Below are positions 8,269-37,756 of a stretch of 38,786 nucleotides of DNA, in pieces. Positions within the stretch are counted from its first letter, which is position 1, and each line of letters begins with the position of its first letter. Where the stretch lies: assembly GCA_964514855.1 (NCBI GenBank), contig CAZESZ010000001.1, positions 1 to 38,786 of the forward strand, given 5' to 3'. The stretch comes from an uncultured Candidatus Peribacteria bacterium. GTDB lineage: Bacteria; Patescibacteriota; Gracilibacteria; Peribacterales; Peribacteraceae. Made by a program: the position numbers and the translations under genes. The notes beneath the pieces are model-generated. The model was not told where the DNA came from. It saw nothing but the letters and a program-made list of their open reading frames with translations, and made no database searches.

Positions 8269-8934
8269 GTGCCACGCTCGTTTACCGATGAAGCCATCGT
8301 GCTCAGGAGTTACAACGTCGGCGAGGCGGATCGGTTTTGCGTGCTTCTGACGCGTGGCAGCGGACGCGTACTGGTGCGTGCGACCGGAGCTCGTAAGGTG
8401 CAGAGTCGGCGTGGGCGCGGACTGCTTGCGCTCCATCGCATCAGTGTGACGTGGCAGCAACATTCGTTCGGCAATGCCGTCACCGCGGCAGAATGCCTCG
8501 ACGCTCACAGCGCTGCGTGGCGAGACGCCGCACGATTTTCGTGCGCTGCGCAGGGGATCGAACTCTTGCTGACACTCACCGAGGACGGCTTCGATATGCC
8601 GGATGTGTACGACCTCACGGCCGAATTTCTGCGTGCGTGCGGCTCGACTGTTCCTACCGTTGCGCTTCGGCTGTATACCCTGAAACTTCTGAAGCTTCTC
8701 GGATATCTGCCATCTGCGGACTCCTCGCCCATACCTCTCTCATCGGCCTTCACCGAACTCCTCGACTCTTTGGATTCGATTTGCCTTACCGATGTCCTTC
8801 TCCCCACAGATGGGCTCTCCGTCGAAATTGGTCGTTTCCTTCAGGGTTTGCTCGGCAGCCAGCTCGGGGTTTCGCTCAAGTCTCCAGACGTTCGGCTGCG
8901 CATCTCCTCGGCCGTCACGCCGATCTGCCAGTAG
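8269..8934 (+). CDS. recO: DNA repair protein RecO
   Basis: GTG start 3 nt after the ftsX stop. N-terminal OB-fold signature EAIVLRSYNVGEADRFCVLLTRGSGRV..RATGARK. Confidence 0.75.
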   Translation: MPRSFTDEAIVLRSYNVGEADRFCVLLTRGSGRVLVRATGARKVQSRRGRGLLALHRISVTWQQHSFGNAVTAAECLDAHSAAWRDAARFSCAAQGIELLLTLTEDGFDMPDVYDLTAEFLRACGSTVPTVALRLYTLKLLKLLGYLPSADSSPIPLSSAFTELLDSLDSICLTDVLLPTDGLSVEIGRFLQGLLGSQLGVSLKSPDVRLRISSAVTPICQ

Positions 8935-10154: not shown

Positions 10155-10708
10155 CTCGTGCTCATTTCATCAAGCGCACGATTGACGAGCGCATCGGCGC
10201 GTTTATTCTGTTCGCGCGGCACGTACACGAAACTGATGTGCGGGAACTTCGTCTTCAGTTCGGTAATCTCTTCGATGAGTGGCTGGAACGTCACCATTTT
10301 CACGCGATATTCGCCGCTCAGCTGTTTCACGACGAGCTCGGAATCCAGGTGACATAGGAGATGATTTGGACAGTATTCTGCCGCGATCTTGAGTCCGGTG
10401 ATGAGCGCCCGATACTCGGCGATGTTATTCGTCTCGGTGCCGATAGCTTCTCCATATTCGCGGAGTGTTTCGCCTTTCAGTGGATCGATGAGCACGCATC
10501 CGATGGCCGCCTGGCCAGGATTTCCTCGCGAGCCGCCATCCGTGAAGAGGTGCAGTGTGCCGCCAATGGCGAGTGGCTGGTCGGCTTCTACAGCTGTGCG
10601 CGTTTCGAGCGCTTTGCTGAGGACTTCGGCGACGAATTGGTCTCGCTCTCTCGCTTTCGGAAATACGGTGTGCAGTTTTCTCTCGAGTGTGATGGGAAGC
10701 TTGACCAT
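10151..10708 (-). CDS. rnhA: Ribonuclease HI with ~45-aa N-terminal extension
   Basis: RNase H catalytic blocks FTDGGSRGNPG, NNIAEYRAL, HLDSELVV and KRADALVN. N-terminal VKLPITLERKLHTVF..RDQFVAEVLSKAL looks ribbon-helix-helix-like. TATACT -10 lies 6 nt upstream of the ATG. Confidence 0.8.
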   Translation of the reverse strand: MVKLPITLERKLHTVFPKARERDQFVAEVLSKALETRTAVEADQPLAIGGTLHLFTDGGSRGNPGQAAIGCVLIDPLKGETLREYGEAIGTETNNIAEYRALITGLKIAAEYCPNHLLCHLDSELVVKQLSGEYRVKMVTFQPLIEEITELKTKFPHISFVYVPREQNKRADALVNRALDEMSTR

Positions 10709-16767: not shown

Positions 16768-19131
16768 TCACGCTTTCTTCAGCTCCGTCAGCACACGAGT
16801 GTGGATCTTCTCCACTTCTTCCTGTGTCAATGTCCTATCCTCTGCGCGGTACGTGAACCGTAGTGTCAGCGTTTTTCCGTTCGCACCTTCGTACAGGTCG
16901 GCGACGGTTATGTTCGTGAGGAGTGGACTGAGTGCACGAAGTTTTTTCGTGATCGTCTCGTACGCAGTCTTAGGAATAACGAGGGTTTCGTCGAATTCCA
17001 CTGCCGGGAATACCGGTAGCGCCGTGGGTATCAACACGTTGGGTTTGAGGCCAAGTAACGCGTGAGCATCCAGGATCGCGACTGCGACTCGACCTGGAAG
17101 ACCGAACGCTTTCCTGATATGCGGGGCCACTTCCGCCAGGAGGCCGATCTTCTTTCCCTGGCATGAGACCGTAGCGCTCCGGCCTGCGTGTGCGAGTGGC
17201 GGGAGATTCTTCATTGTTTGTGCGTAGGAGATGTCGTATCCCACGCGTTTCATCGCCTGCGTCAGATCCGCTTTCGTAATGAGGACTGGATCATCTTTCA
17301 GTGTCGTCTTGCTTTTGGCCGCTGTGAGTAGTGCCAATTCTGCGCGCTCCTGGCCGGGAGAAAAGACTTGTCCATACTCGAAGACTTTCAACGTTGCCGA
17401 GGTGGACATCGTCAGTTCTCGCGCTACGGTCTCCAGGAGTCCTGGCACCAGGCTTTGGCGCATCCGTGACAGTTCTTCGCCGATCGGATTTTCTATCGAG
17501 ACGACCTTCGTTGTATCGTTTCCAGCTTTCTGCATGACGCTTGGACTCGTGAACGCGAGGTGCAAGAGTTCCGTGAAGCCCTGTTCTTTCAGTGCATCGC
17601 GAATACCATTCGTCCGCTCGTCCCGCTGAGGAGGCATGATGCTCGCCTCCGGCATGACCGCTGTGACGTTTGCGTAGCCATACACTCGCGCTACTTCTTC
17701 AGCGATATCCTGGACGTGTGTGATGTCACGTCTCCAGGCCGGTGGCGTCACGGTGAGCGCGGCACCGGTTCCTTTCACGGAACAGCCGAGATCAGTCAAG
17801 ATTTTCTTCGCCCTCTTGGCCTCTATGGATGAACCGATGTATCCGAGGACTTTTCCGAGATCTGCTTTCACCGGTTTCTGCGCAGATATTTTCCCCCAGG
17901 TGACGAGCTTCGAAACTACGCGGCAGTCTGCGGCGTTTTCGGTCAGCAGTTCAATGGCGCGCCTGAGGCCAATCGACGCTGAGATCGGCGGCACACCTTT
18001 TTCGTAGACCGTTGCGGCGTCGGTCCGGTGGCTCATCGCGATGGTCGTGCGGCGAACGGACACAGGATCCGGGATACCGGCCTGCAGAAACACACTTCTC
18101 GTTGTCGGCTTCTGAGATGTTCGGAGGCCTCCCATGACGCCGAAGAGATCGAAAATTCCCATATCGTCGCTGATCACCAGGGCACCTGCGGGAAGTTCTC
18201 GTGCGGCATTGTCCAGCGTCGTGATCTTCTCACCTGTCTTCGCGGTGCGGATCCGGATATCGCTGGCGAAATCATCGGCATCGAACGCGTGCAGCGGCAT
18301 GCCGGTTTCCATCAGCACATAGTTCGTCACGTCGACCATCAGATTGATAGGTCGCCAGCCGGTGGCCGAAAGCCTTCGTTGCATCCAGTCGGGCGATGGC
18401 CCGGATGCATCGACGTGCAGAAGCACACCTTCGTAATACGGCACGAGCTCTTTCGCATCATTGATCACTGTGAATGGTGGGGGAGTCGAGGGGAATTTCA
18501 CGGCAGGGACCTTTGGTTCTTTCTTCCAGGTCGCAAGACCCATGGCCACCAGTTCACGCGCGACGCCGATCTGCGAGAAGAGGTCGGGACGATTTGTAAT
18601 CGCGTGATTATCGATGTGGAAGATGACGTCCGTGAGGCCGAGCGCCGTGCGGAGCGGTGTGCCGGGCTTGAAGCCGCACGCCGTGAGATCGACGATTGGT
18701 CTGCTGCCATGGTCAGGCATTCGTACAAATAGTGTCTCGATGCCCAATTCCTCCGATGCGCAGATCATGCCATGACTCTCGATGCCACGAATCTTGATGG
18801 GCGCGAGTGTCATTGTTTCTCCTCCATGCCATTTCACCGTGGCACCCACATGTGCAAACGCGACCAGCATGTCCGGCTTCACATTCGTTCCCCCACAGAC
18901 CACAGTTTTCGTTCCCTGATCGGTCTGCACCCTGCATACCGAAAGCGTGTCGGCGTTCGGGTGCTTGTCGACCGTGATGACCTTGCCGACGACGACATTC
19001 TCCAAGAACGCACCTTGCATCTCCACTGCATCTACTTCTCCCGTCCCCCGCGTGATGCGGTCTGCGATAACCTCCGGATCGGTTTCGATCCAGTCGATGA
19101 AATCCGAAAGCCAGTCTCGTGAGATCTTCAT
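16768..19131 (-). CDS. pheT: Phenylalanine--tRNA ligase beta subunit
   Basis: 787 aa. N-terminal tRNA-binding OB domain (VVGKVITVDKHPNADTLSVCRV), then B3/4, B5 and C-terminal FDX-ACB-like regions. pheS is not adjacent. Confidence 0.92.
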   Translation of the reverse strand: MKISRDWLSDFIDWIETDPEVIADRITRGTGEVDAVEMQGAFLENVVVGKVITVDKHPNADTLSVCRVQTDQGTKTVVCGGTNVKPDMLVAFAHVGATVKWHGGETMTLAPIKIRGIESHGMICASEELGIETLFVRMPDHGSRPIVDLTACGFKPGTPLRTALGLTDVIFHIDNHAITNRPDLFSQIGVARELVAMGLATWKKEPKVPAVKFPSTPPPFTVINDAKELVPYYEGVLLHVDASGPSPDWMQRRLSATGWRPINLMVDVTNYVLMETGMPLHAFDADDFASDIRIRTAKTGEKITTLDNAARELPAGALVISDDMGIFDLFGVMGGLRTSQKPTTRSVFLQAGIPDPVSVRRTTIAMSHRTDAATVYEKGVPPISASIGLRRAIELLTENAADCRVVSKLVTWGKISAQKPVKADLGKVLGYIGSSIEAKRAKKILTDLGCSVKGTGAALTVTPPAWRRDITHVQDIAEEVARVYGYANVTAVMPEASIMPPQRDERTNGIRDALKEQGFTELLHLAFTSPSVMQKAGNDTTKVVSIENPIGEELSRMRQSLVPGLLETVARELTMSTSATLKVFEYGQVFSPGQERAELALLTAAKSKTTLKDDPVLITKADLTQAMKRVGYDISYAQTMKNLPPLAHAGRSATVSCQGKKIGLLAEVAPHIRKAFGLPGRVAVAILDAHALLGLKPNVLIPTALPVFPAVEFDETLVIPKTAYETITKKLRALSPLLTNITVADLYEGANGKTLTLRFTYRAEDRTLTQEEVEKIHTRVLTELKKA

Positions 19132-19202
19132 GGCGGATACGATACGGCAGAGCAGGAAAGGTGTACACTGTCGACCACTTACCTCATTCTTCCCTCTTCA
19201 TT

Positions 19203-19475
19203 ATGGCTCTCATGGGTAAAAAGAAGGATTCCTGTTCCACCAGTTGCCTCGTGACCAAGTGGGCGCTCTGCCTCCTACTTCTCCTTGTCACAGCGGCATC
19301 GATCGTCGGCGTGTACGAGACGCACATCATCATCGGTACCGATCCGGCTCGCTTTGCGCTGCAATTCGGTTCTACGTCTGGTTCACTCGCAATCATCGCA
19401 TTCGTCATGTCGTCCGTTGCGTTCATGAAGCACATGGTCTGCTGCATGTCGCCCTGCGAAGTCTGTTCCAAGTAG
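19203..19475 (+). CDS. Hypothetical small membrane protein with Cys-rich tail
   Basis: Start at ATG 19203 (M29 of track ORF 19119..19475). Lys-rich N-terminus with CSTSC, two hydrophobic helices and tail MVCCMSPCEVCSK. No family recognised. Confidence 0.4.
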   Translation: MALMGKKKDSCSTSCLVTKWALCLLLLLVTAASIVGVYETHIIIGTDPARFALQFGSTSGSLAIIAFVMSSVAFMKHMVCCMSPCEVCSK

Positions 19476-19588: not shown

Positions 19589-19678
19589 GGAGAGGTCGCA
19601 TAGTGGCCTAGTGCGCTCGCTTGGAAAGCGAGTAGACGTGAAAACGTCTCGGGAGTTCGAATCTCCCCCTCTCCGCCA
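19589..19678 (+). tRNA. tRNA-Ser (anticodon GGA), CCA encoded
   Basis: Acceptor GGAGAGG/CCTCTCC. Anticodon stem CTCGC/GCGAG with loop TTGGAAA. Long variable arm (GACG..CGTC). T-arm GGGAG-TTCGAAT-CTCCC. Terminal GCCA. Confidence 0.93.
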
Positions 19679-19755: not shown

Positions 19756-21081
19756 TTAGAAAAACATCCACCGAGATGCCATGATCCAGTACAGAACGAC
19801 GCTGAGAGAAATGTTGTAGATGGCCTGCATCCATTCCGCGGACGTGCTCTGTTCTTTTCTCAGGATCAGGAAGAAGGTCATCGGAACGAAGTAATAGCGC
19901 TGTTCGATGAGCCATGAGGGAAGTAGATAGAGGATGGTCATCGGGTACAGCAGATAATGAATCGGCTTACGGAATCGCGTGACGAGTAAGGATAGGAGCG
20001 CGAGCGTTGTGGGAATGAAGAAAAGCGTTTTCAGCAGCGGTGTCAGCGTGAAGTACGAAAGAATCCGATTTCGCAGAAAGACCGAATCTAGGCCCTGGTT
20101 GTAGCCGTGTGTGTTCACGAACGTCATCATCCCAAGGACGAAGAAGAGAACGACGATCGTCGGAGCGAATCGGTCTGTTCGCAGATACCGAAAAATTTTC
20201 TTGAGATTGAACAGGTGCATCGGCAGAAAAAGAATGCCCAAAAGAAACAGCAGAAAATACACGTTGCCCAGATGGAACGATGGAAACGGATGCGACTCTT
20301 TATCGCCGATCGCGATGCCGCCATTGAGCTTTATGAAAATGGTGAAGAGAAAAAATCCCAGGTAAAAAACAATGACACTGACGAGCAGATGTGCATTGTG
20401 GACCGTCGGTTCTTCTGCGCTCTGCCATCTACGTGCGAGGCGTCGAGTGCACCGCAGCGGTATCAGCGAGACGATGCGATGCAGGATGCCAGTTTCGTGA
20501 ATACAGGCGATGAAGAAGTATCCGAACCACACGATGTTATTTTGGCGCACGAGAATTGCGATCGCCGAAGCGATGCTCGCCCATGCGTAGCTTTTTCGCT
20601 CATGTGCATGCAGTGCAAAAAGAAGTAGCAACAGTGACAGAACGTCTGTGTAGAGCAGGAAAAAAAACGGAAGGATGATCGGTAGGAATGCGTATTGCAC
20701 GGTTTTTGCTACTGTGCTTGTCTTGTTCACTGTTTGTGCTGTTCGAAGAAAAACGAAGACAGATGTCAACGATAGAAGCAGGTTCACGAGTCGGTAAAAA
20801 GTGATCGACCGTTCTCCCATGATCGTCGATGCCACAGTCATGAAGGCGTGATATCCTGGGATCGTCGTCAGAGAGCCAGTGACCGTAAAGTTGCCATTCT
20901 GAAAACTTTCGATTTGCTCCATGTGAAATCCTTCATCGCCGAAGAACGTCGCATCCTTCACCCCGAGAAATGCGAGACAGAGAATGACGATAATCCCAAA
21001 CAGAACGATGGTCTGAAAATCTCGTTGCGTTGGAAGATATTTCCCTATCCATGCGGGAAGCGAGCGATGCATGGATTTCAT
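19756..21081 (-). CDS. DIE2/ALG10-like (GT59-like) GT-C integral membrane glycosyltransferase
   Basis: 441 aa, multi-TM. The blocks FGDEGFHMEQ..LTTIPGYH, LYTD, VRQNNIVW, NGGIAIGDKESH and EQRYYFVP match, from memory, the conserved blocks of eukaryotic ALG10. ATG 21072 is an alternative start (TGtGATACG 9 nt upstream). Confidence 0.72.
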   Translation of the reverse strand: MKSMHRSLPAWIGKYLPTQRDFQTIVLFGIIVILCLAFLGVKDATFFGDEGFHMEQIESFQNGNFTVTGSLTTIPGYHAFMTVASTIMGERSITFYRLVNLLLSLTSVFVFLRTAQTVNKTSTVAKTVQYAFLPIILPFFFLLYTDVLSLLLLLFALHAHERKSYAWASIASAIAILVRQNNIVWFGYFFIACIHETGILHRIVSLIPLRCTRRLARRWQSAEEPTVHNAHLLVSVIVFYLGFFLFTIFIKLNGGIAIGDKESHPFPSFHLGNVYFLLFLLGILFLPMHLFNLKKIFRYLRTDRFAPTIVVLFFVLGMMTFVNTHGYNQGLDSVFLRNRILSYFTLTPLLKTLFFIPTTLALLSLLVTRFRKPIHYLLYPMTILYLLPSWLIEQRYYFVPMTFFLILRKEQSTSAEWMQAIYNISLSVVLYWIMASRWMFF

Positions 21082-21106
21082 CGTATCACAATGCTGCTCT
21101 TTGGCT

Positions 21107-21112
21107 TATACT
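21107..21112 (+). promoter_or_regulatory. -10 TATACT for the PMT-like GT-C gene
   Basis: Lies 10 nt upstream of ATG 21123, in a divergent region shared with the ALG10-like gene (TGtGATACG at 21082-21090 on the minus strand). Confidence 0.45.
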
Positions 21113-21122
21113 ATCCGCCGTT

Positions 21123-22949
21123 ATGCCCGGAGAGGGTACATCCCATGCGGCACAGCGGACATGGTTCTCACTCGAGAAGGATTTGATCGTGCTATGCGCG
21201 TCGGTGGTGCTCCTCCTGTGGTTTGTTTTTTTGATATCCATTGCTCGTCAGTCAGTCCCACATTTCACGAACGGAACCTACAGCATCGATTCCGGCCCCG
21301 CACGCACGTTCGTTTTTCCATTGTCCTTTCCTTCCGCGGGACAGAATGTCGTCATCGATGTCGATCTGACGAGTTTGTGGGGGTACCGCCCTTTGCTGTA
21401 CATCGCAGTGGATGACTGCATACTCTCGATGACGATCAACGGTCACAGCGTTGCATCGCCAGTCATCAATCTTCCGTACTGCAACAGTGAACCGAAAGAG
21501 TTTCGTCTCCACGATTTTCTGGGTCAGTCCGTCAATCATTTTTCCCTGACGCTCCGCGATCATGGCGGCCTCACGAAACTGACGATCGACATTGGAAAAG
21601 CCGACCCATTGAAACTTTTATTCTGGATACTCGGTATCGCTTCTGTGCTTGTGTACGTAGCGTTCTGTGCACGCGTGCTCCGGTGGCATGTATCGGACAT
21701 GAGCGTCGCTGCCATCACATGTATCGGCATACTCCTGCGGTACCTGTACATGGCTTCTACATCGTACGATGTCCGTTCGCACGAGTGGGACAAACATGTG
21801 GAATACATTCTGCATATGGCGCGGCATTTCTCCGTACCTCCGGCTGCTGCAGGATGGGAATTCCACCAGCCCCCATTCTATTATCTGCTCACGGGACTCT
21901 GGATGCGAATCGGCGGAGCTTTGAGCAGAACCATGGCGATGCTGCTGCACGACCTGCAGATGATATCGCTTCTCATGAGCATCCTGACACTACTCGTCGG
22001 TGTTGGCATCGCATATACCCTTTTTCATGGGCCGATGCAGAGACTGCAACGTATGCTCATGGTCGCGCTCGTGGCAACGTTTCCGACCCTCGTGATGTTT
22101 TCGTCACGCATCAATAACGATACACTGCTCCAATTCCTCGCATTCCTCTTCGTCTTTTTTCTTGTGCGCTTCTGGCAGGGTCAGCGGCTCCAAGATTTCT
22201 GGGGCCAAACATTCGTCATCGCCGTCGCGCTTCTCACGAAATTGAGCGGTCTCATCTTCATGCCAGTGTCCATTCTGTGCATCGCCTGCATGCGCGGCAT
22301 GATGTGGGGCAAAAAAATACTCTTGGTCAGTCTGCTGATTGCATTCTGCTTGGTGACCACCGGCTGGCTCCCGATTCTTCGATATACCGTAGAGCATGAC
22401 ACATCACGTTCCCTCTACTTTGCCAGTAAAGGCATAGACCCGATGGTGAAGCTCACGAATATACCAAAAAATTTCCTCGTCTTTCACCCGCTCGAAATAC
22501 TACGGCATCCGTTCAATGATCCGTACTCAGATCAGGAGCGTCGCCAATTTTTCCCGGAATATTTCTTCAAGTCCGCTTTCTTCGGTGAGTTCTCTTTCCC
22601 GGACACGTTTCGGACGCTCAGCTTCCTCATACTTGGCCTCGGATTGGTCTCTCTTGTATTGGCATGCGCGGGGGTCATCCAGGCGGTCCGAACGAGGCAG
22701 CCTGCGATCTTTCCCCTCGTACTCATCACTGTCTTTCATCTCGCCGCAGCTCTTATCTATCGCTATCTAGCTCCTTTTTCACCGGCGCAGGATTTCCGAT
22801 ACGTGACGATCCTGACCATTCCATGGTTCTATTTTGCCATTCTTGGATCCTCAAATCTTCCCGCGCCGCTTCGCAGGTTCTGTACGAGTATTCTCTTCGC
22901 ATGGGCGCTGGTGTGCGCGATCTTCTTCCTGAAGATCTTCTTTGATTAG
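21123..22949 (+). CDS. PMT_2/ArnT-like GT-C glycosyltransferase with N-terminal extracytoplasmic domain
   Basis: Start at ATG 21123 (M32 of track ORF 21030..22949), with TATACT 10 nt upstream. TM1, a soluble domain, then a multi-TM core with YDVRSHEWDKHVEY..EFHQPPFYYLL. Confidence 0.7.
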   Translation: MPGEGTSHAAQRTWFSLEKDLIVLCASVVLLLWFVFLISIARQSVPHFTNGTYSIDSGPARTFVFPLSFPSAGQNVVIDVDLTSLWGYRPLLYIAVDDCILSMTINGHSVASPVINLPYCNSEPKEFRLHDFLGQSVNHFSLTLRDHGGLTKLTIDIGKADPLKLLFWILGIASVLVYVAFCARVLRWHVSDMSVAAITCIGILLRYLYMASTSYDVRSHEWDKHVEYILHMARHFSVPPAAAGWEFHQPPFYYLLTGLWMRIGGALSRTMAMLLHDLQMISLLMSILTLLVGVGIAYTLFHGPMQRLQRMLMVALVATFPTLVMFSSRINNDTLLQFLAFLFVFFLVRFWQGQRLQDFWGQTFVIAVALLTKLSGLIFMPVSILCIACMRGMMWGKKILLVSLLIAFCLVTTGWLPILRYTVEHDTSRSLYFASKGIDPMVKLTNIPKNFLVFHPLEILRHPFNDPYSDQERRQFFPEYFFKSAFFGEFSFPDTFRTLSFLILGLGLVSLVLACAGVIQAVRTRQPAIFPLVLITVFHLAAALIYRYLAPFSPAQDFRYVTILTIPWFYFAILGSSNLPAPLRRFCTSILFAWALVCAIFFLKIFFD

Positions 22950-23149
22950 TGGCCCCTCTGCAGTCTCTTTGCGAGCGTGCGCAGGTACGACGTCGCGACT
23001 TTCATGCGTACGTACGTTCCGGTCTTCGGGTCGAAGACGCGCTTCTTCACGATATTCGCCTTGAACGTGCGCCTCGTTGCACGCAGCGAGTGGCTCCGGA
23101 GATTCCCGGTTGAGCCTTTTTTGCCGGTCATTTGGCAGATACGCGCCAT
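22946..23149 (-). CDS. rpmB: 50S ribosomal protein L28
   Basis: Start at ATG 23149 (M17 of track ORF): MARICQMTGKKGSTGNLRSHSLRATRRTFKANI. Promoter TTGACG-17-TACAGT ends 10 nt upstream. Confidence 0.9.
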   Translation of the reverse strand: MARICQMTGKKGSTGNLRSHSLRATRRTFKANIVKKRVFDPKTGTYVRMKVATSYLRTLAKRLQRGH

Positions 23150-23159
23150 GAGCTTGCAG

Positions 23160-23188
23160 ACTGTAGTGAAGTGAAGCGGCTTCGTCAA
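23160..23188 (-). promoter_or_regulatory. Promoter TTGACG-17-TACAGT for rpmB
   Basis: Read on the minus strand. The -10 ends 10 nt before ATG 23149. Confidence 0.6.
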
Positions 23189-23242
23189 TGCCCTCACAGG
23201 TATTTTTCCGAGTCCCCATGCCGCTCCTGCTACGATGTCATC

Positions 23243-25165
23243 ATGTTTCAGGACGTACGCCGCCGGTTTTTCGGTTCGGGTTCGCGAGAGCCAGTTGCGT
23301 CCGGTCCTGGCGACTGTGACGTGCTGATTCCGGTCTTCAATCGTCCGGATATGCTTCGAACATTGCTTGCGCGTCTCGCCGTGAACACCGACCGATCGTT
23401 ACTGAGGCGCATCTGGATCGGTGATGATGGCAGTGACAGCTTCTCGACCGCGGCTATTTCTCGCCTTGCGAAAGAGTCAGGGCTTCCGATCACGATCATC
23501 CGTCACGAGACGTCGCTCGGATTTGGCGGCAACTGCAACGCACTCTTCGCACAGTCTGATGCTCGGCTGTGCATCATTCTCAATACGGATATCGATCTTC
23601 CGCCACAGTGGCTTCCGAGGATGCTCGCGCCGTTTTCCTCGGATGCACGCATCGCGCTTGCGACACCGCTGTCCACGAATGCCGCGAATCACACACTTCG
23701 CCTCAGGCCAGGTCAGCATTGGATGGAAGCGGACAGACTCCTCGCGAACGTGGTTCCAGCATTCCCGGATGACTGTACAGCGATAGGATTTTGTATGGCG
23801 GTGCATGCGGCCCTTCTGCGAGAGAATGCAATACCGCTCTTCGATCCTATATTCGGGCGAGGCTACGGTGAAGATACGGATCTTCATTACCGCGTTCTCG
23901 CGCACGGACTTCGGTCCGTCATCATCGATGATCTCCTCGTGCATCACAAAGGTGCAGCGTCATTTTCCGTTCTCCCGGATGCCGCCGCTATTCGCATGAA
24001 GGGCGAATCTCGCTTGCAGTCGCGGTGGGGGAAGGAGCATGCGCTTCGGTTTGCAGAGTTCCAGGCTCGCGATGCGCTCGGTGCGATTCGCGATCGTTCA
24101 ACGTCAGTTCTTTCACTGCAGAGCACACAAAAAAAATTCGATATTCTCTTCGTCCTTCCGAACAACAATCTGCGGTACGGTGGCATCTGGCTTATCGTTG
24201 AGATCGTGCAAGCGCTCATCGCGCACGGACTCGACGTCGGTGTGTTCGTCGTTGATCCTGGGGGAATCGTTTCTGATACCGCGGTGTATGGATTTTCTGC
24301 TTTCAATGAACTCGGCGACCTTTTTGAGCATGCCACTGCAGTGTCCTGCATCGTTTCGACATCGGATCGGACCATCGAACACGCGCAACGGCTGTGCGAA
24401 CGCTACGGCTCAACCGAGGTGCTCCTTCTCCAGAACATGGAAGCGGTGTTCCGCAGCGGATGCAATGTGGAGACATTTTTCCAGTATCGTCGCATCCGGA
24501 ATGTTCTCACGGTTTCGGAGTGCCTCACACAGTACATCCAGCTCATCAATCCGGACGTCAATGTGAAGCAGTTGAGGGTGGGCCCAGATCCGCTCGTATT
24601 TTATCCGCGGGACGTCGCCAGGCGTCCGTTCACGGTGGCACTTGCTGCGAATCTGATTCCTGAAAAAGGCACAACGCAAGCACTCGAGCTCGCTCTCATG
24701 CTCCGCGAACGCGGTTTTCACTTCACGATCTTCGGTTGGGACACGAAGGATTTTCCACTCGATGCCTCCATTGGTGATGTGTGTCATGACACCAGTAGGC
24801 AGGGACTCGCCCACCTCTTTAGCCATACCGAATTCATTATCGATCAGTCGTACCTGGAAGGTCTGGGCTTGCCGCCCATCGAAGCTGCTTTCTGCGGATG
24901 CATTCCGATCATCGGCTCCAGAGGCGCTGGGGAATATATTTTCCGTGACAGCGTCAATGCTGTTGTCATCGACGGATACAAGGATCTCGAGTCGTCTCTT
25001 CGTCGCGTGCAGCGTCTGACGCCTCAGGAAAAAAATCGTTTGCAGAAAAACGCGATGAAACTTCGGTCGGCGTTCAATCTTGAGATTGGCCTGCAGGATG
25101 CAGTGAAAGAGTTATCATCGCTTGCGACGTCCGGGCCCACATCGTACCCTCTGCATCATGAGTGA
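23243..25165 (+). CDS. Two-domain glycosyltransferase (N-terminal GT2 / C-terminal GT4-like)
   Basis: Start at ATG 23243 (TACGAT 6 nt upstream). GT-A part: VLIPVFNRPDML..IGDDGSD..LNTDIDL. GT-B part: EGLGLPPIEAAFCGCIPI. Confidence 0.8.
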   Translation: MFQDVRRRFFGSGSREPVASGPGDCDVLIPVFNRPDMLRTLLARLAVNTDRSLLRRIWIGDDGSDSFSTAAISRLAKESGLPITIIRHETSLGFGGNCNALFAQSDARLCIILNTDIDLPPQWLPRMLAPFSSDARIALATPLSTNAANHTLRLRPGQHWMEADRLLANVVPAFPDDCTAIGFCMAVHAALLRENAIPLFDPIFGRGYGEDTDLHYRVLAHGLRSVIIDDLLVHHKGAASFSVLPDAAAIRMKGESRLQSRWGKEHALRFAEFQARDALGAIRDRSTSVLSLQSTQKKFDILFVLPNNNLRYGGIWLIVEIVQALIAHGLDVGVFVVDPGGIVSDTAVYGFSAFNELGDLFEHATAVSCIVSTSDRTIEHAQRLCERYGSTEVLLLQNMEAVFRSGCNVETFFQYRRIRNVLTVSECLTQYIQLINPDVNVKQLRVGPDPLVFYPRDVARRPFTVALAANLIPEKGTTQALELALMLRERGFHFTIFGWDTKDFPLDASIGDVCHDTSRQGLAHLFSHTEFIIDQSYLEGLGLPPIEAAFCGCIPIIGSRGAGEYIFRDSVNAVVIDGYKDLESSLRRVQRLTPQEKNRLQKNAMKLRSAFNLEIGLQDAVKELSSLATSGPTSYPLHHE

Positions 25166-26416: not shown

Positions 26417-26491
26417 TGGAGCCGCTGACCGGGATTGAACCGGTGACCTACACATTACCATTGTGTTGCTCTACCACTGAGCTACAGCGGC
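26417..26491 (-). tRNA. tRNA-Thr (anticodon GGT), CCA encoded
   Basis: The reverse complement reads GCCGCTG TA GCTC AGTGGTA GAGC A ACACA ATGGTAA TGTGT AGGTC ACCGG TTCAATC CCGGT CAGCGGC T CCA. This is a canonical 75-nt cloverleaf. Confidence 0.93.
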
Positions 26492-27120
26492 TTAGTGCCT
26501 AATTTCAAAAACTCTTTTCGCACGTCGCGCAGATTTCGATGATGTAGTAAATGAACAAGAATATCCCGCAGTTTCCTATTTTGGTAGTAGATCGTCACAA
26601 CACCATACTGACTCTTGCGACGATAGGTACCAAGGGAACCTGAGCGCGTAACTGTCACTGTATAAAATTGACGCTTGTGAATTCTAAGTTTTTTTGACCA
26701 AAAGTCCAGCGCTTCCTCCGCACTGATATCCGTGAAGATTTGCAGTCCGAATCGGCAATCTGAAACACGAATACCGAAAAAAAGTACCAAGAATTTCAGA
26801 AAGGTTTTCAGCAGTTCCGGATCCGTATTTCCTAGTCGGATTGCCGATAGGTTAGCCTTGGTTCCTTCGCCCCAATAGAGACCGATGCCCATCCCAAACA
26901 AGAGATATTCTTCCGGCGTTTTCGGAGAACGTAGTGTGAATGGGTCTCCATGCGGATGGTGCATGTGGTAGATGGCTTCGCTGATCGAGCGCCGAGGAAT
27001 TTCATACTTTTTGAGCCAATATTCGACCCTATGCACAGAGCACCCGAGTTCGGTCGCAATGTGTTTCATGGAATGTTTTTTCTTTCCATACAAACGTTCG
27101 AGAGCGCTCTTTTGTATCAT
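26482..27120 (-). CDS. LAGLIDADG-like homing endonuclease candidate with N-terminal HTH
   Basis: 212 aa. HTH-like SMKHIATELGCSVHRVEYWLKKY and a single LAGLIDADG-like motif LLFGMGIGLYWGEGTK. AT-rich. The stop codon TAG lies inside tRNA-Thr (positions 8-10 of the tRNA). Confidence 0.6.
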   Translation of the reverse strand: MIQKSALERLYGKKKHSMKHIATELGCSVHRVEYWLKKYEIPRRSISEAIYHMHHPHGDPFTLRSPKTPEEYLLFGMGIGLYWGEGTKANLSAIRLGNTDPELLKTFLKFLVLFFGIRVSDCRFGLQIFTDISAEEALDFWSKKLRIHKRQFYTVTVTRSGSLGTYRRKSQYGVVTIYYQNRKLRDILVHLLHHRNLRDVRKEFLKLGTKPL

Positions 27121-27624: not shown

Positions 27625-28854
27625 TTATCGTTGCAGTAATTTTTGGGCGGAGCGAAGAGCGGCGATGCATGTATCGATCTCGTCTACCGTGTTGTACGCT
27701 GCGACGGAGAGGCGAGTGGAGGATGAGATGCCGAGCAGCGTATGCAGTGGCTGTGTGCAGTGATGTCCGGCACGAAGACATATGCCTTCTTTGCCGAGTA
27801 CGTCTGTGAGATCGTGTGGGTGGACGCCTTGCACCGTAAAACTAATACATCCGGTTCGTTTCGTGGGATCGGTCGGACCAAGAATAGTGAGTCCACTGAT
27901 CTCCTGTAGCCCTGAGAGCGCATGTGTCAGTAACGAAGATTCATGCGCACTGATCGCGTCGATACCGGTGTTCGTCACCCACTCGAGTGCTGCCGCCAGT
28001 CCGACTGCGTCGGCTGCAGCCAGTGTCCCGGCTTCGAAAGTGCGTGGAAGTTCGGCGGTCGTGAAACCGTGCATCGTCACCGTCTGGATCATGTCTCCTC
28101 CGCCGAGAAACGGTGGCATCGTCGTCAGATGTTCTCTCTTTCCATAGAGCACGCCTATTCCGGTAGGTCCATATGTTTTATGTCCAGAGAAAGCCAAAAA
28201 ATCACAATTAAGTTTCTGTACATTGATATATTCATGCGCGGAAAGTTGCGCAGCATCGATCAATATCACAGCGCTGTTTTCATGTGCAAGTGAGACCAAT
28301 TCTACAAGCGGCTGCAGTGTACCGAGGACATTACTCAGACCTGACACGGCCATGATTTTCGTTTTTCCTTTTTTCAAAATCTTCTTGGTTGCTACGAGAT
28401 CGATGTATCCGTCGGCTGTCATCGGAATCCAGTCGAGACCTACACCCTGACGTTTCGCCAGCTGCATCCAGGGAACGATATTACTGTGATGTTCCAGTAT
28501 CGAGACTGCGATGCGGTCTCCGGGTTTCAGTGTTTCACCGTAACTGCGCGCAACGAGGTTGATCGCCTCTGTGGTATTCTTCGTGAAGATGATTTCGTGA
28601 GCATGGCGTGCATGCAGAAATTTTCTCACTGTTTCTCTCGCCGCATCGAGAGCGATTGTCGCTTCTTCCGCGAGTGGATGCACCCCTCGGTTCACATTGG
28701 CGTTCTTCGCCATATAGAACTCCGCGAGAGCGTCCAGGACGCTCTGCGGCTTTTGGCTTGTCGCTGCACTATCCAGATAGCATAGCGTCTTGCCATGCGC
28801 TTTCTTTGCGAGGATTGGGAAGAACCGACGAATGTTGGCAACATCAAATGTCAT
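27625..28854 (-). CDS. sufS: Cysteine desulfurase, SufS type
   Basis: 409 aa. PLP-binding Lys in FSGHKTYGPTGIG and catalytic Cys in RAGHHCTQPL. TGTATACT -10 lies 10 nt upstream. Confidence 0.92.
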   Translation of the reverse strand: MTFDVANIRRFFPILAKKAHGKTLCYLDSAATSQKPQSVLDALAEFYMAKNANVNRGVHPLAEEATIALDAARETVRKFLHARHAHEIIFTKNTTEAINLVARSYGETLKPGDRIAVSILEHHSNIVPWMQLAKRQGVGLDWIPMTADGYIDLVATKKILKKGKTKIMAVSGLSNVLGTLQPLVELVSLAHENSAVILIDAAQLSAHEYINVQKLNCDFLAFSGHKTYGPTGIGVLYGKREHLTTMPPFLGGGDMIQTVTMHGFTTAELPRTFEAGTLAAADAVGLAAALEWVTNTGIDAISAHESSLLTHALSGLQEISGLTILGPTDPTKRTGCISFTVQGVHPHDLTDVLGKEGICLRAGHHCTQPLHTLLGISSSTRLSVAAYNTVDEIDTCIAALRSAQKLLQR

Positions 28855-28864
28855 GCAGACGATG

Positions 28865-28872
28865 AGTATACA
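28865..28872 (-). promoter_or_regulatory. -10 TGTATACT for sufS-sufU
   Basis: Lies 10 nt upstream of ATG 28854. Confidence 0.45.
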
Positions 28873-28942
28873 GCAGGCGTCAGAATTTGATGGCGTGAAT
28901 TTTGGATCGTTTCGACGCCTCTTTTACTGTACCATTTCAGGC

Positions 28943-31939
28943 ATGACACAACGCACCATCGTGATCCTCAGCTTTGTTTTATTCGTCTGTGCGCTCCTCT
29001 GGGGCGGCTACACCCTCCTCGTGTATCTCGGCGTGCCGGTGCATCAGTTCGTGTACTCTTCTCCGGAAGAAATCGGTCTGTGGGATCTCGCCTGCGGAAC
29101 TCAGCAGAGCAACATGGTGTATCTCTGTCGTGGAGCATCGGCGTTCTTTCCGTTTCTCATTGCGACGCTGAAGATGGCAAGTCCGTTCTTTGGGTACATT
29201 GTTCTCTCAGCTCTCGCGTTTGGCGGAGTCCTTCTCTATGCCGGATTTCAGACCGGGCGCTTCGAACGTGTCATCAAGACCAATGCGTTCATCATACTGC
29301 TTCTGAGCATCGGCGCTGTGTGGTTGCTTGGGACGACGTTCGCCATCGGAACAACGTACAATCTCCGCACGCCAGAGAACGCGATGCTCACCGATCTCAA
29401 CGGACAGAAAGTCCTGCCGTCGTTTCGACGTTTCTTCGAGCCTACGGCCCAGATTTACCCCAGTGGCGGTCAGGCGCTCGCCGAACTGCGGGCCAATTAC
29501 GAATTTCTCCTCGGACGCGGATGCTTGTCTGACACCGGTGTGCAGACCCAAAATGGTGCGAAGTTGTACAACCTCCGTCTGTGGTGCATGCAGACAAGTC
29601 TCTTCAACCGCGCGGGTGTCCAGATCTTCATGGTGCTCTTCTTCCTCTTCAATCTTCTCATTCTCGGGCGTTTCCTGATCACCAAGGTCATTGGCCTCAA
29701 AACTGAGAATACGCTGCTTTTGGCATGTCTTAGTTTTGGCATCGGTGCGCTCGGTTGGGTCGCTATCCTCTGGAGTCTCGGACTCTTCGCGTTGCTGGAT
29801 ACGACGCTCATCCGCGTACTCTTCTTCGGCATGCCGTTCGTGCTCTATCCACAGAGCGCATGGTGGATCCGGACGATGCGCGACAAAAAGATCACACTTT
29901 CAGTCTCGATGCGCAGCTGGCATCTGCTCCTCGCGTGGCTCCTCGTATCGTACCTTGCACTCAATTTCTTCAATGTCGTGCGACCGTTTCCGATCGGTTG
30001 GGATGACCTCGGTAGTTACCTGAATCGTCCGAGACTGCTCGCGAGTTACGGATACTTCATTCCGTCGATGTCGCAGTTTCAGTGGGAATACCTCACGTCA
30101 CTCGGGTTCCTGCTCTTCGGGTACGACAGTTGGATCGGTTCCACGTTCGCCATGGAGATCAACTGGGCGGCAGGCATGCTGTCCGTACTTGCGGTGTACG
30201 CCTTCGGTCGGCGTGTTTTCGGCCGCGGCCGCGGCGTGCTTGCGGCTATGCTGTACTACTTCCTGCCGATGACCGGTCATTTCTCATTCGCGGACATGAA
30301 GATCGATAACTCGTCGTTCTTCACCACCGCGCTCGGCGTCATGGCTGTCTTCGCGTTTCTCTTCCCCGCCAAAGATTTCGATGAATCCGCGGAACCGAGG
30401 GACCCGAAGCTCCTCGTCATCGCAGGATTGATCCTAGGCTTCAGTTTCGGCATCAAGCCGACTGCGATCCTCGGCATTCTCATGACTCTCGGTATTCTCG
30501 TCGGTAGCATCGTGGGTCCAATCGGCTTCACCGGTGCCATTATCGCGGGATTTGGACTCTTGCAGAAATTTGGCGTATTCAACGTCAGCGATATTTTTAA
30601 ACGCGCGAGCATTTCCGCCAGCGTTCCCTCAACGACCTTCGCGATCAGCGTCCTTCTCCTCGGCATCGGTCTTATCGCTACTGCAGTGCATCAACATCGT
30701 TCGGAAGTTCGTCGTCTTCTGGTGTCCGTGAGCTGTCTTGTGCTTGGCATGGGTATCGCCGTCGCGCCCTGGATTCTCCATAACGCCGCACTCATTCGGG
30801 GATACAATCTTACCGGATACTTGACTGCCAACGATAAGGCTGCGTTCAGTGCTGCTGCAAAGGCCAGTCCTCCGGGAAATGTCAGTGTGGGCAGTATGCT
30901 CTCCGCAGTAGATCTCATCGCTCCGCAAGTTTTCAACTATCAGAAAGAAGATGTTGAGGCCATGAATCTTCCAAAGACTATTCCCGTTCGATATTTGCCG
31001 CCGGAACTGAAGCTCGATCCAAATCATGCGGCATGCAAATCATCCGCTCGCACCGAAGAGCTGGATCGGTACTGGGGATTCGGTAGCGGCATCGGACACT
31101 ACCTCGGCCTTGCCTGGCGCCAAGTCATGAACCTGGATTCCTTCGGTTACTACGTCACGCAGGCGCCGATGCTCCTGCTGTTTCCGCTTCTGCTCCTGCT
31201 CCCGTTCTTCTGGTCAAAAGAGGGGCGATGGCTGCGATTACTGTTCGTCGGGACGATCATCTTCTTCGTGCAATGGTCCTTCGCTGCGAATGGTGTGCCG
31301 TGGTACGGGATTGGTATGTTCCTCGGATTCGCCATCGGCCTTGAAGCCTTCATTGCGCATGCACCGGATACACCGAATCGTTCGCTCTTCGGATTCTTCA
31401 TCGCGATGAGCATCCTCATCTGTCTCGCGAATCGTTTGTGGCAGTTCGATGCGCAGAAAAATCTGTTTGAGTATCCGCTCGGCAAGATCAGTGCCTCGGC
31501 GCTCAGGGAGGTGACGATTCCGGATTACGATGATATTCGTGAGAGCGTCGTGAGCCGTCATGAAACACTTCCCGAGGCGCCGTACACATACCGTATCGGT
31601 ACGTTCATTTCGTACTTCATCCCCAGAAACCGCGAGATCTTTCCGATGGCGGATCATCAACTCAATTTCTTCAACTGCGTGAACCAAGAACGTAATCACA
31701 TGCTCACACTTCGTCGCCTGCAGGCGCTTGGGTTCAATAGCATCATCTTCGATACGAATACGCAAACGATCGAAAAAGATCCCAATGGTTCCCTGCATCA
31801 GAAAGTGGCCAGGTTCCTGGACTTCGCCAACGATCCTGCGGTGAAGGTCACGATCGCGGTGAATGATCCGAATAACGGTATTGCATACATTCTCTTGCCG
31901 ACGGCTACCGGCAGTTTCCTGAAGGCTCCGCGTCCATGA
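28943..31939 (+). CDS. Very large polytopic membrane protein, GT-C-type glycosyltransferase candidate
   Basis: Track ORF 28790..31939. ATG 28943 is preferred (TACCAT 7 nt upstream; earlier starts overlap sufS). Many hydrophobic segments. The loop motif PIGWDDLGSY resembles the acidic first-loop motif of GT-C enzymes. Family not recognised. Confidence 0.6.
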   Translation: MTQRTIVILSFVLFVCALLWGGYTLLVYLGVPVHQFVYSSPEEIGLWDLACGTQQSNMVYLCRGASAFFPFLIATLKMASPFFGYIVLSALAFGGVLLYAGFQTGRFERVIKTNAFIILLLSIGAVWLLGTTFAIGTTYNLRTPENAMLTDLNGQKVLPSFRRFFEPTAQIYPSGGQALAELRANYEFLLGRGCLSDTGVQTQNGAKLYNLRLWCMQTSLFNRAGVQIFMVLFFLFNLLILGRFLITKVIGLKTENTLLLACLSFGIGALGWVAILWSLGLFALLDTTLIRVLFFGMPFVLYPQSAWWIRTMRDKKITLSVSMRSWHLLLAWLLVSYLALNFFNVVRPFPIGWDDLGSYLNRPRLLASYGYFIPSMSQFQWEYLTSLGFLLFGYDSWIGSTFAMEINWAAGMLSVLAVYAFGRRVFGRGRGVLAAMLYYFLPMTGHFSFADMKIDNSSFFTTALGVMAVFAFLFPAKDFDESAEPRDPKLLVIAGLILGFSFGIKPTAILGILMTLGILVGSIVGPIGFTGAIIAGFGLLQKFGVFNVSDIFKRASISASVPSTTFAISVLLLGIGLIATAVHQHRSEVRRLLVSVSCLVLGMGIAVAPWILHNAALIRGYNLTGYLTANDKAAFSAAAKASPPGNVSVGSMLSAVDLIAPQVFNYQKEDVEAMNLPKTIPVRYLPPELKLDPNHAACKSSARTEELDRYWGFGSGIGHYLGLAWRQVMNLDSFGYYVTQAPMLLLFPLLLLLPFFWSKEGRWLRLLFVGTIIFFVQWSFAANGVPWYGIGMFLGFAIGLEAFIAHAPDTPNRSLFGFFIAMSILICLANRLWQFDAQKNLFEYPLGKISASALREVTIPDYDDIRESVVSRHETLPEAPYTYRIGTFISYFIPRNREIFPMADHQLNFFNCVNQERNHMLTLRRLQALGFNSIIFDTNTQTIEKDPNGSLHQKVARFLDFANDPAVKVTIAVNDPNNGIAYILLPTATGSFLKAPRP

Positions 31940-32604
31940 GAGTCGTTGCGGTCATACCGGCATACAACGAGGCTACGCGCATCGCAGCGGTGGTCCATGC
32001 GGCGAAGCAATCGACTGATCGTGTCATCGTCGTCATCGACGGATCCACTGATGCGACCGAAGCAGTCGCGCGCGACGCCGGAGCGACGATCATCCGCCAT
32101 GCCGAAAACTGTGGAGCTGGAGCTGCCACGATGACCGGACTGGAAGCTGCGCGCATGCTGGGGTTCGATATCGCCGTGACACTGGATGCCGACGGCCAGC
32201 ATGCAGCCGAGGATATTCCGCGGCTCATCGAGATACTGCAGACTCAGCATGCGGACTTGGTCATTGCCAACCGTTTTGGACGCAAGAACGCCATTCCCTT
32301 CGTCCGAAGGATAGCCAACACGATCGGGAATCTCATCACGTTCTTCGTGACCGGTTTGTATCTTCCAGATACTCAGTGCGGGTTCAAGGCGTTTGGACCG
32401 CGCGCGCTTGCGGAGATCGAACTGAAGATGTCGGGATTCGAGTTCTGTACGGAAGTTATCCGCGAAGCCGCCAAACATCGTTGGAAAATCGTCTCGATTC
32501 CTTCAAAAGTGGTATATTCCGAATACACGCTGGCCAAAGGTCAGTCGTTCGCGAGCGGTCTGCGCACTGCTGCCAAAATTTTGCTTCGTACCTTCCTCCG
32601 ATGA
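31936..32604 (+). CDS. GT2 polyprenyl/dolichyl-phosphate sugar synthase-like glycosyltransferase
   Basis: 222 aa. AVIPAYNE..VIDGSTD..TLDADGQH..CGFKAF. ATGA overlap with the upstream stop. Confidence 0.85.
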   Translation: MRVVAVIPAYNEATRIAAVVHAAKQSTDRVIVVIDGSTDATEAVARDAGATIIRHAENCGAGAATMTGLEAARMLGFDIAVTLDADGQHAAEDIPRLIEILQTQHADLVIANRFGRKNAIPFVRRIANTIGNLITFFVTGLYLPDTQCGFKAFGPRALAEIELKMSGFEFCTEVIREAAKHRWKIVSIPSKVVYSEYTLAKGQSFASGLRTAAKILLRTFLR

Positions 32605-32966
32605 TTACCTTCGAATACACGCCGTACCAAGTCGTCGTTCCACTCTTCAGCTTTCTGATGGTCGTGTATGCGTGGAATTTGGTCATGCGCCACAAGAAGA
32701 CGATTTGGGAAGGCGTCCTCTGGACGGTATTTTGGTCTGCGATCGCATACATTTCCTTCTTTCCCAGCAGTCTCCAGTATCTGAGTTCTATTACGGGCAT
32801 CAAGAAGAATGAAAATGCCGCGACGATCACGGCTATCGGCGTGCTGTTCTTCATCGTCTTCTACATGATCATTCGTTTGGAAGCACTGGAACAGCGACTG
32901 ACGAAGATGGTGCGAGAGAGAGCGCTGGCAGACGCTGGAGTAGAGGATAACAAGGTGAGGAAGTGA
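32601..32966 (+). CDS. DUF2304-like small membrane protein
   Basis: Start at ATG 32601 (ATGA overlap with the GT2 stop). Hydrophobic helices and a C-terminal amphipathic LEALEQRLTKMVRERAL. This family typically follows such GT2 genes (from memory). Confidence 0.55.
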   Translation: MITFEYTPYQVVVPLFSFLMVVYAWNLVMRHKKTIWEGVLWTVFWSAIAYISFFPSSLQYLSSITGIKKNENAATITAIGVLFFIVFYMIIRLEALEQRLTKMVRERALADAGVEDNKVRK

Positions 32967-32997: not shown

Positions 32998-33012
32998 TGT
33001 ACAATCCGTCCA

Positions 33013-36298: not shown

Positions 36299-36303
36299 AT
36301 CGC

Positions 36304-37748: not shown

Positions 37749-37756
37749 ATGTCACT

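Follow-up and report, generated by a model that had tools for sequence, protein, structure and literature searches.

A predicted outward-facing GT-C glycosyltransferase of the DIE2/ALG10 family in a Candidatus Peribacteria bacterium

What is a relative of a glucosyltransferase of the eukaryotic endoplasmic reticulum (ER) doing in a bacterium of the candidate phyla radiation (CPR), and how did it come to be there? The question is raised by a gene in a 38,786-nucleotide stretch of DNA (contig CAZESZ010000001.1, positions 1 to 38,786, the whole of which is called the window here) from an uncultured Candidatus Peribacteria bacterium. A first-pass annotation, made from the sequence alone, took the product of this gene to be a bacterial homologue of ALG10/DIE2. 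In eukaryotes ALG10/DIE2 (CAZy GT59, Pfam PF04922) is the Dol-P-Glc:Glc2Man9GlcNAc2-PP-Dol alpha-1,2-glucosyltransferase (EC 2.4.1.256) that adds the last glucose of the N-glycan precursor. The reading argued for here is that the bacterial protein is a member of a prokaryotic sister clan of that enzyme, and that it is an outward-facing glycosyltransferase of the GT-C class which would transfer a sugar, probably glucose, from polyprenyl phosphate to a surface glycan. Taken as a whole, this reading is given a probability of about 0.75.

Membership of the DIE2/ALG10 (GT59) sequence family is strongly supported. The Pfam model DIE2_ALG10 (PF04922) matches the protein at E 4.8e-38, with 131.9 bits against a curated cutoff of 27, and the match is near full length, residues 47-404 of the protein aligning with positions 5-389 of the 391 in the profile. 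An NCBIfam scan gave nothing above threshold (one match of 25 bits lies below it). Named vertebrate ALG10 proteins were fetched from the databases with a human ALG10 sequence that served as bait only, the fetched sequences being used from then on. BLASTP with composition correction aligns the protein with bat ALG10 over 252 amino acids at E 2e-9, and the DExFH, TTxPG, YT(D/E), RQxNIxW and NGGIxxGDxxSH blocks match residue for residue. Alignment by hhalign of a profile from 18 diverse prokaryotic members with the vertebrate ALG10 profile has a probability of 99.85% and E 1.1e-30 over 345 columns, and it extends to the C-terminal block, LIEQRYY in the one and LLEFRYF in the other. The proposed homology with ALG10 is confirmed by these three comparisons.

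All the ALG10 blocks quoted at first sight are found on translation, in collinear order (Table 1), and the last of them, EQRYYFVP, pairs with vertebrate LLEFRYFILP. When 113 prokaryotic and 9 vertebrate sequences (122 in total) are aligned, D49, E50, P134, Y144, R179, R395 and Y396 do not vary, and conservation reaches 90% or more in about 30 other columns. The family motifs DExxH, TTxPG, YTD/E, RQxNIxW, NGGIxxGDxxSH and ExRY are kept.

Could a generic GT-C protein of the PMT/ArnT type have been caught by the ALG10 model through its transmembrane composition? It would fit such an origin that the top structural matches of the protein (see below) are ArnT and PglB and not an ALG enzyme, the PDB being without an ALG10 structure. 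Against it, DIE2_ALG10 is the sole Pfam match: the PMT, PMT_2, ArnT and other GT-C models do not score even at E<=1, so that neither GT39 nor GT83 offers a better home. What is common to the prokaryotic and vertebrate sequences is a set of polar motifs in extracytoplasmic loops, not hydrophobic stretches. The protein encoded by the adjoining PMT_2-type gene has no similarity to the ALG10-like protein detectable by BLAST, and the match to ALG10 is therefore not one of generic membrane-protein composition. A composition artefact is hardly credible and was rejected.

The open reading frame (ORF) is intact. An identical NCBI protein, P0001, has 438 amino acids, the length expected if translation begins at the second ATG (21072). 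In a scan for promoters and terminators around the gene, sites were no commoner than in shuffled sequence.

Table 1. Positions of the ALG10-like gene, its conserved blocks and neighbouring features in the window, with one partner gene from a related locus (TM, transmembrane helix; aa, amino acids; nt, nucleotides)
Feature	Position	Strand	Remarks
ALG10/DIE2-family (PF04922, GT59-like) GT-C gene	19756..21081	-	intact ORF, 441 aa from first ATG
FGDEGFHMEQ block	residues 47-56, nt 20914-20943	-	checked by translation; external loop 1, first helix
D49-E50 pair, predicted catalytic acids	nt 20932-20937	-	from conservation, AlphaFold model and GT-C_A analogy
LTTIPGYH block	residues 71-78, nt 20848-20871	-	external loop 1; P75 and G76 nearly invariant
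LYTD block	residues 143-146, nt 20644-20655	-	outer end of TM3/TM4; Y144 invariant, T145 and D146 at least 90% conserved
VRQNNIVW block	residues 178-185, nt 20527-20550	-	outer TM5/TM6 turn; R179 invariant
NGGIAIGDKESH block	residues 253-264, nt 20290-20325	-	external loop after TM7; N253, G255, G259, D260 and H264 at least 90% conserved
EQRYYFVP block	residues 393-400, nt 19882-19905	-	outer end of TM12; R395 and Y396 invariant
pheT	16768-19131		bacterial housekeeping gene
tRNA-Ser(GGA)	19589-19678	+	abuts 3' end of ALG10-like gene
PMT_2-type GT-C	21030..22949	+	Pfam PMT_2 29 bits; at most 639 aa, true start uncertain; divergent from ALG10-like gene
ORF resembling ribosomal protein L28 (by eye)	22946-23197	-	between PMT_2 gene and GT2+GT4 fusion
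GT2 + GT4 (Glycos_transf_1) fusion	23132..25165	+	677 aa; Pfam PF00535 63 bits, PF00534 34 bits
Second GT-C (PMT_2 domain)	28790..31939	+	1049 aa; Pfam PMT_2 32 bits; stop overlaps start of next gene
Small soluble-type GT2, polyprenyl-phosphate sugar synthase class (PpgS/AglJ/Dol-P-hexose transferase-like)	31936..32604	+	
DUF2304 small membrane protein	32601..32966	+	121 aa; Pfam PF10066 66 bits
Two consecutive GT4 genes	32995-34191, 34188-35294	+	Pfam Glycos_transf_1 108 and 132 bits
ALG5-like GT2 of locus L001	L001 6063-6773		adjoins or lies near ALG10-like gene

A GT-C fold with 13 membrane helices, an N-terminus on the inner side and an active site turned to the outside of the cell is strongly supported by structure prediction. 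The AlphaFold model made from the 122-sequence alignment has a predicted local distance difference test score (pLDDT) of 95.3 and a predicted template-modelling score of 0.93 (the model from the single sequence, with pLDDT 47, was not used). In a Foldseek search of the PDB with it, the 28 best matches are all GT-C-fold proteins. The GT-C matches are ArnT, PglB, AglB, Pmt4, ALG12, ALG9, AftD, PimE, glycosylphosphatidylinositol mannosyltransferase I, STT3 and PIGU (the last of which we take to be GT-C-like), and ALG6 stands at rank 50. Sequence searches of the PDB with the protein and with the family profile gave no match, and so no close homologue, nor ALG10 itself, has been solved. The structural comparison with eukaryotic ALG10 that had been suggested therefore upholds the fold class, GT-C, and for a closer comparison the PDB has no structure of the ALG10 family.

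Thirteen helices of the model are read as membrane spans. Lysine and arginine account for 20 of the 77 inner-loop residues as against 7 of the 111 outer-loop residues, and the conserved loop residues are all on the outer side (D49, E50, H53, Q56, P75, G76, Y144, R179, G255, G259, D260, H264, H325, N328, N338, W390 and E393), with none on the inner. External loop 1 of the model has two helices, and D49 and E50 stand at the start of the first of them, helix 50-61, right after the first transmembrane helix. The catalytic base of GT-C_A enzymes is at the same place, in the first external-loop helix (PMC13503287). By prediction only, then, the protein has what is looked for in the family, a GT-C_A fold of 13 helices with an acid in the first helix of external loop 1.

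Is such a protein out of place in a bacterium? The lumenal ALG glycosyltransferases have been said to 'appear to be unique to eukaryotes', BLASTp having found no prokaryotic homologues (Lombard 2016, PMC4973528), and a phylostratigraphy preprint of 2024 maps ALG10 to the origin of Eukaryota (bioRxiv 10.1101/2024.10.30.621208). In the literature searched, no paper on prokaryotic members of PF04922, on GT59 or on ALG10-like proteins in prokaryotes was found. The first-pass annotation noted that GT59 is regarded as essentially eukaryotic. As a description of the literature that holds, but it does not hold for the databases, in which prokaryotic PF04922 proteins are many, widespread and automatically named. 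The first protein search returned 189 matches, every one of which already carries the PF04922 annotation, and several prokaryotic relatives have automatic names such as 'alpha-1,2-glucosyltransferase'. The protein has its place in a prokaryotic clan, an unstudied one, of a family regarded in the literature as confined to eukaryotes. With such proteins already placed in PF04922 automatically, the gap is one of study and interpretation and not of detection.

The nearest named relatives are in metagenome-assembled genomes (MAGs) of Candidatus Peribacteraceae and Peregrinibacteria, at 49-51% identity over the aligned region. Among cultured bacteria, Microbulbifer, Jeongeupia and Archangium have full-length relatives of 32-37% identity. 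When each GTDB species was scanned in the form of one genome, at least 51 loci with ALG10-like genes came to light, a lower bound and a biased sample, as the scan used a single 9-residue pattern taken from the 18-sequence prokaryotic alignment (loci are numbered with the prefix L below). They are from the CPR (Peribacteria, Microgenomates, Moranbacteria), from DPANN archaea (Woesearchaeota, Nanoarchaeota), from Chitinibacteraceae, Xanthomonadales-type Gammaproteobacteria and Myxococcota, and from Chloroflexota, Acidobacteriota, Verrucomicrobiota, Bacteroidota, Gemmatimonadota and Bdellovibrionota. A prokaryote with such a gene is nothing out of the ordinary, nor is the family rare in sequence space. 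Among 1.84 billion representatives of 50%-identity clusters the vertebrate ALG10 profile finds 4,117 at E<=1e-3, and the top matches sampled come from diverse eukaryotes (a brachiopod, a zoopagomycete fungus, a green alga, a foraminiferan and, judged by its MMETSP source, a marine protist).

One archaeal case stands apart. The ALG10-like protein encoded at L012 7963-9132, from a MAG labelled Methanosarcinales, is 93% identical to that encoded at L017 10001-11095, from a Woesearchaeota MAG. This near-identity is probably due to a binning error or to a very recent transfer, and the presence of the gene in archaea may therefore be limited to DPANN.

The relationship of the prokaryotic members to eukaryotic ALG10 was approached with an unrooted tree, built by neighbour-joining on 365 columns from 130 prokaryotic and 111 eukaryotic sequences. 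Other GT-C families were not used as a root since alignments across GT-C families are unreliable (PMC4973528). Eukaryotes and prokaryotes are split in 100 of 100 bootstrap replicates and the midpoint root falls on the branch between them. The protein lies in the prokaryotic clan, outside the clade of the 111 eukaryotic ALG10 representatives. Mean identity is 0.41 within eukaryotes and 0.38 within prokaryotes as against 0.24 between the two, and no prokaryotic subgroup in this set is notably nearer to the eukaryotes. These sequence relationships point to the prokaryotic members as a sister clan of eukaryotic ALG10 and argue against a recent import from a eukaryote. The choice between transfer and an ancient family, left to phylogeny by the first-pass annotation, is in this way settled in one part: recent transfer from a eukaryote falls and a separate clan stands. 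An ancient prokaryotic origin, or an ancient transfer with subsequent spread, is each compatible with the tree.

Recent horizontal gain from a eukaryote also has to be set beside contamination of the contig with eukaryotic DNA. The characterised members known to us are all eukaryotic and the literature calls the family eukaryote-specific, as either of these origins would have it. However, the genes around the locus on the same contig are bacterial housekeeping and cell-wall genes (in the window pheT, a class A penicillin-binding protein gene, recO, an FtsX-like gene and proteases), composition shows only a mild dip in GC, and the best identity to any sampled eukaryote is 27%, compared with 83% to 35% for prokaryotic relatives. 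With the clan split as well, contamination and recent transfer were rejected, the chance of either being negligible.

What the sister clan says about the origin of the eukaryotic step is a more tentative matter. It is possible, with the odds somewhat against it, that ALG10 is not a eukaryotic invention, that the prokaryotic clan represents an ancestral polyprenyl-phosphate-glucose branching system, and that the ER step, possibly together with ALG5, was taken over from it when eukaryotes arose or earlier. Often the clan takes the form, in Peribacteria (CPR) and Myxococcota, of a pair of genes, one ALG10-like and the other ALG5-like. For eukaryotic ALG5, PMC4973528 gives the origin as unknown.

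The second member of that pair, a GT2 protein, is the candidate for synthesis of the donor. In Peribacteria loci L001, L004, L007 and L039 a GT2 of 235 amino acids is encoded 13-70 bp after the ALG10-like gene on the same strand (in L008 the distance is 702 bp). Strong copies (53-59% identity by tblastn) are at most about 3 kb away in L003, L004, L005, L007 and L039, and a more distant copy (31-33% identity) abuts the ALG10-like gene in Myxococcota L027, L029 and L033. Altogether the GT2 is encoded with the ALG10-like gene in nine related loci (L001, L003, L004, L005, L007, L039, L027, L029 and L033). JGI and some NCBI records call this GT2 family 'dolichyl-phosphate beta-glucosyltransferase' (ALG5), and its nearest solved relatives, Dol-P-Man synthase, ArnC and GtrB, are all polyprenyl-phosphate sugar synthases.

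Other neighbours are also glycosyltransferases. The divergent arrangement with a PMT/ArnT-like GT-C, remarked on from the start, is borne out by the PMT_2-type gene of the window, and a divergent PMT_2 partner also accompanies the gene in L001 and L002, the loci of the two closest genomes. In the window it is a probable pathway partner of the ALG10-like gene. The taxa are so far apart that clustering of neighbours across loci by BLAST brought out few families in common, and Pfam family counts were used instead. Among 86 immediate neighbours there are 6 sugar-nucleotide epimerases/dehydratases, 5 GT2, 4 DUF2079, 3 PMT, 3 PMT_2, 3 GT87 and 2 Wzx-like transporters, which is an enrichment for other GT-C families and sugar-nucleotide enzymes. 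One NCBI protein, P0029 (771 amino acids, on a 2544-bp contig), has a GT87-like GT-C fused to an ALG10-like domain, and separate GT87-like genes adjoin ALG10-like genes in three phyla (L004 8592-9965, L026 4332-5591, L030 10537-11811). The fusion and the adjacency suggest that the GT87-like and ALG10-like GT-Cs act on the same glycan.

Tandem ALG10-like paralogues also occur, at L051 8443-9864 and 9911-11146 and at L031 1197-2525 and 2645-3784. Their hosts are a Tahibacter MAG and an unclassified bacterial MAG, and the N-terminal halves of the second copies are confirmed by Pfam.

The mechanism that can be put together from this begins in the cytoplasm, where a GT2, most likely an ALG5/GtrB-type synthase that handles beta-glucose, would load a sugar onto polyprenyl phosphate. 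The lipid-linked sugar would then be flipped across the membrane, and the ALG10-like enzyme would transfer it, with inversion, to a hydroxyl of a cell-surface glycan. D49/E50, at the start of the first external-loop helix, would serve as the catalytic base. The conserved R179, H264, R395 and Y396, which face outward in the model, could hold the departing lipid phosphate, R179 being a candidate ligand of the donor phosphate. The enzyme probably works in series with the divergent PMT_2-type GT-C and the other glycosyltransferases of the region. The donor sugar, the alpha-1,2 linkage, the acceptor and the flippase are inferred only, by analogy; the acceptor may be a lipid-linked oligosaccharide, the glycan of a glycoprotein or a wall polymer. 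As far as the sequences tell, the gene is not a functional orthologue of ER ALG10, and the eukaryotic reaction does not follow from the homology. Glc2Man9GlcNAc2-PP-dolichol is not expected as an acceptor in a CPR bacterium.

Several findings weigh against this reading of the protein. Experimentally characterised family members are, to our knowledge, eukaryotic only. The Foldseek matches have modest template-modelling scores (TM-scores), 0.3-0.5, and the details of the active site rest on the model and on analogy. The tree is by neighbour-joining only and its sample is biased, with the eukaryotes being those nearest to vertebrates and the prokaryotes those nearest to this protein. The name 'ALG5' for the partner GT2 comes from automated annotation and is not a test of function. 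The neighbours seen in Jeongeupia, in a Pseudomonadales MAG and in a Chloroflexia MAG (mnmA, pfkB, uvrA, GGDEF) are uninformative, and since in cultured Proteobacteria and in Chloroflexota they are unrelated housekeeping genes, there is no universal operon. Among the window proteins scanned there is no GtrA-family flippase (small ORFs were not exhaustively scanned). An ALG5/DPM1-like GT2 had been noted in the same window and it is indeed there, as a DPM1/PpgS-like GT2. It is the sole candidate in the window for a synthase of the lipid-sugar donor, it is 10.9 kb from the ALG10-like gene, and it is translationally coupled to a different GT-C. Its best match is to PpgS, which is of the GalNAc type and not a glucose synthase (NCBIfam 169.8 bits with an equivalog cutoff of 370, then AglJ with 102 and Dol-P-hexose transferase with 66). 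It is 30-31% identical to the ALG5-like GT2 that adjoins ALG10-like genes elsewhere.

These last findings bear on the identity of the sugar. With the same fold and mechanism the donor might carry mannose, GalNAc or another sugar in place of glucose, the likeness to ALG10 then reflecting shared ancestry only. The GalNAc-type match of the window's only synthase favours this, as do the GT-Cs that neighbour ALG10-like genes in related loci, which are of the PMT and GT87 types, users of mannose in characterised systems, and the identity between prokaryotic and eukaryotic members of only about 24%. A non-glucose donor is nevertheless considered somewhat unlikely: the GT2 that abuts ALG10-like genes in Peribacteria is automatically assigned to the ALG5 group and not to DPM1/PpgS, and the coupling of the PpgS-like gene of the window is to a different GT-C.

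The identity of the acceptor raises a further alternative, which is that the enzyme glycosylates proteins directly (pilins, S-layer proteins or lipoproteins), as enzymes of the PMT/PglB type do, instead of extending a glycan. In its favour, the partners conserved in Peribacteria (PMT and PMT_2 proteins) are similar to protein O-mannosyltransferases, and PglB, AglB and Pmt4 are among the structural matches. However, eukaryotic ALG10 acts on a lipid-linked glycan (PMC10859629), and the model lacks a large soluble external domain such as PMT, STT3 and PglB use for binding peptide, its longest external loop being 51 residues. The adjacency of GT-C genes and the GT-C fusion also fit stepwise extension of a glycan better. 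Direct protein glycosylation is judged quite improbable. As it narrows the acceptor within the reading preferred here, and so overlaps with it, its likelihood is not to be added to that of the latter.

The rest of the window is rich in glycosyltransferases. The GT2+GT4 fusion would, from its domains, be a sugar-adding enzyme of the cytoplasmic face. The DUF2304 protein presumably belongs to the family of mycobacterial Rv3632, the partner of PpgS. The density of outward-facing, lipid-sugar-dependent glycosyltransferases suggests an elaborate surface glycan, in a CPR bacterium which probably lives attached to other cells. Among the window proteins scanned, which represent only 38.8 kb of the genome, there is no member of the ALG6/ALG8, ALG3/9/12 or oligosaccharyltransferase families.

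Some other features of the window are recorded here. On the minus strand at 35345-38651 a fusion of an OB-fold (ChsH2/DUF35-like) part and a guanylate-kinase-like part is followed by a thiolase and then by an HMG-CoA-synthase-like protein. These genes, as we see them, resemble the archaeal-type mevalonate trio of thiolase, HMGCS and DUF35, and they could supply the polyprenol carrier. Between pheT and tRNA-Ser(GGA) an ORF of 118 amino acids (19119-19475, plus strand) has no Pfam match; it contains one hydrophobic stretch and seven cysteines, of which the final 12 residues include three. A gene for a protein of the RNase H/RVT_3 type (10151-10708, minus strand) is directly downstream of one for a VanW-domain protein (8841-10154, minus strand). 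A tRNA-Thr(GGT) gene (26417-26491, minus strand) overlaps the 3' end of a 212-amino-acid helix-turn-helix ORF (26482-27120).

Models for the origin of the ER lumen are built on the view that the lumenal ALG GT-Cs are confined to eukaryotes (PMC4973528; bioRxiv 10.1101/2024.10.30.621208). A widespread prokaryotic sister clan, in some cases with an ALG5-like synthase, would take ALG10 off the list of eukaryote-only inventions, and it makes the origin of the ALG10 step directly testable. For work on structure and mechanism, models could be found among the compact family members of cultured hosts such as Jeongeupia, Archangium, Corallococcus, Dokdonella and Microbulbifer.

How does the protein compare with systems already known? 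Its nearest solved structures are ArnT (GT83) and PglB/AglB/STT3 (GT66), the top Foldseek matches being 5f15 (E 8.5e-4) and 5ogl (E 2.3e-3), of the ArnT/PglB group, with TM-scores of 0.36-0.40. Like them it has the GT-C fold and presumably a lipid-linked donor, and a first external loop of two helices with the catalytic acid is predicted for it. Unlike them it lacks a large periplasmic domain, and it has no detectable sequence similarity to them.

Mycobacteria have a system for GalN modification in which roles have been described for PpgS (Rv3631), Rv3632 and Rv3779 (PMC3485146). The same three parts recur in the window as the second GT-C, the PpgS-like GT2 and the DUF2304 protein. The ALG10-like gene is 7.7 kb away from this module, which may work with another GT-C, and the PpgS score of the GT2 is below the equivalog cutoff, so that the sugar suggested by the match is putative.

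The proposed logic, a GT2 that makes a lipid-phosphate sugar and an outward-facing GT-C that modifies a surface glycan with it, is that of the three-component mechanism of bacterial periplasmic glycosylation of the GtrA/GtrB/GtrC type (PMC11127046, PMC8035078). The adjacency of GT2 and GT-C genes in the relatives from Peribacteria and Myxococcota is a further likeness. The GT-C here differs in being of the ALG10 family, not GtrC, YfhO or ArnT, and the window differs in having its synthase at a distance and no GtrA-type flippase among the proteins scanned.

From eukaryotic ALG10 itself the protein is set apart by its separate clan (about 24% identity and 100/100 bootstrap) and by its location, which would be the bacterial cytoplasmic membrane and not the ER, with a carrier that is presumably a bacterial polyprenol rather than dolichol. 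The acceptor glycan of ALG10 and the enzymes preceding it are not seen among the window proteins scanned, and the genes of the bacterial relatives, unlike that for ALG10, adjoin the presumed donor synthase and other GT-C genes. What the two have in common is the family, with profile homology over nearly the full length, collinear motifs and the invariant D-E, Y, R and R-Y; a similar size, about 470 amino acids in the one and 441 in the other; and a topology of 13 helices, proposed for ALG10 (PMC6801728) and predicted here for its bacterial relative.

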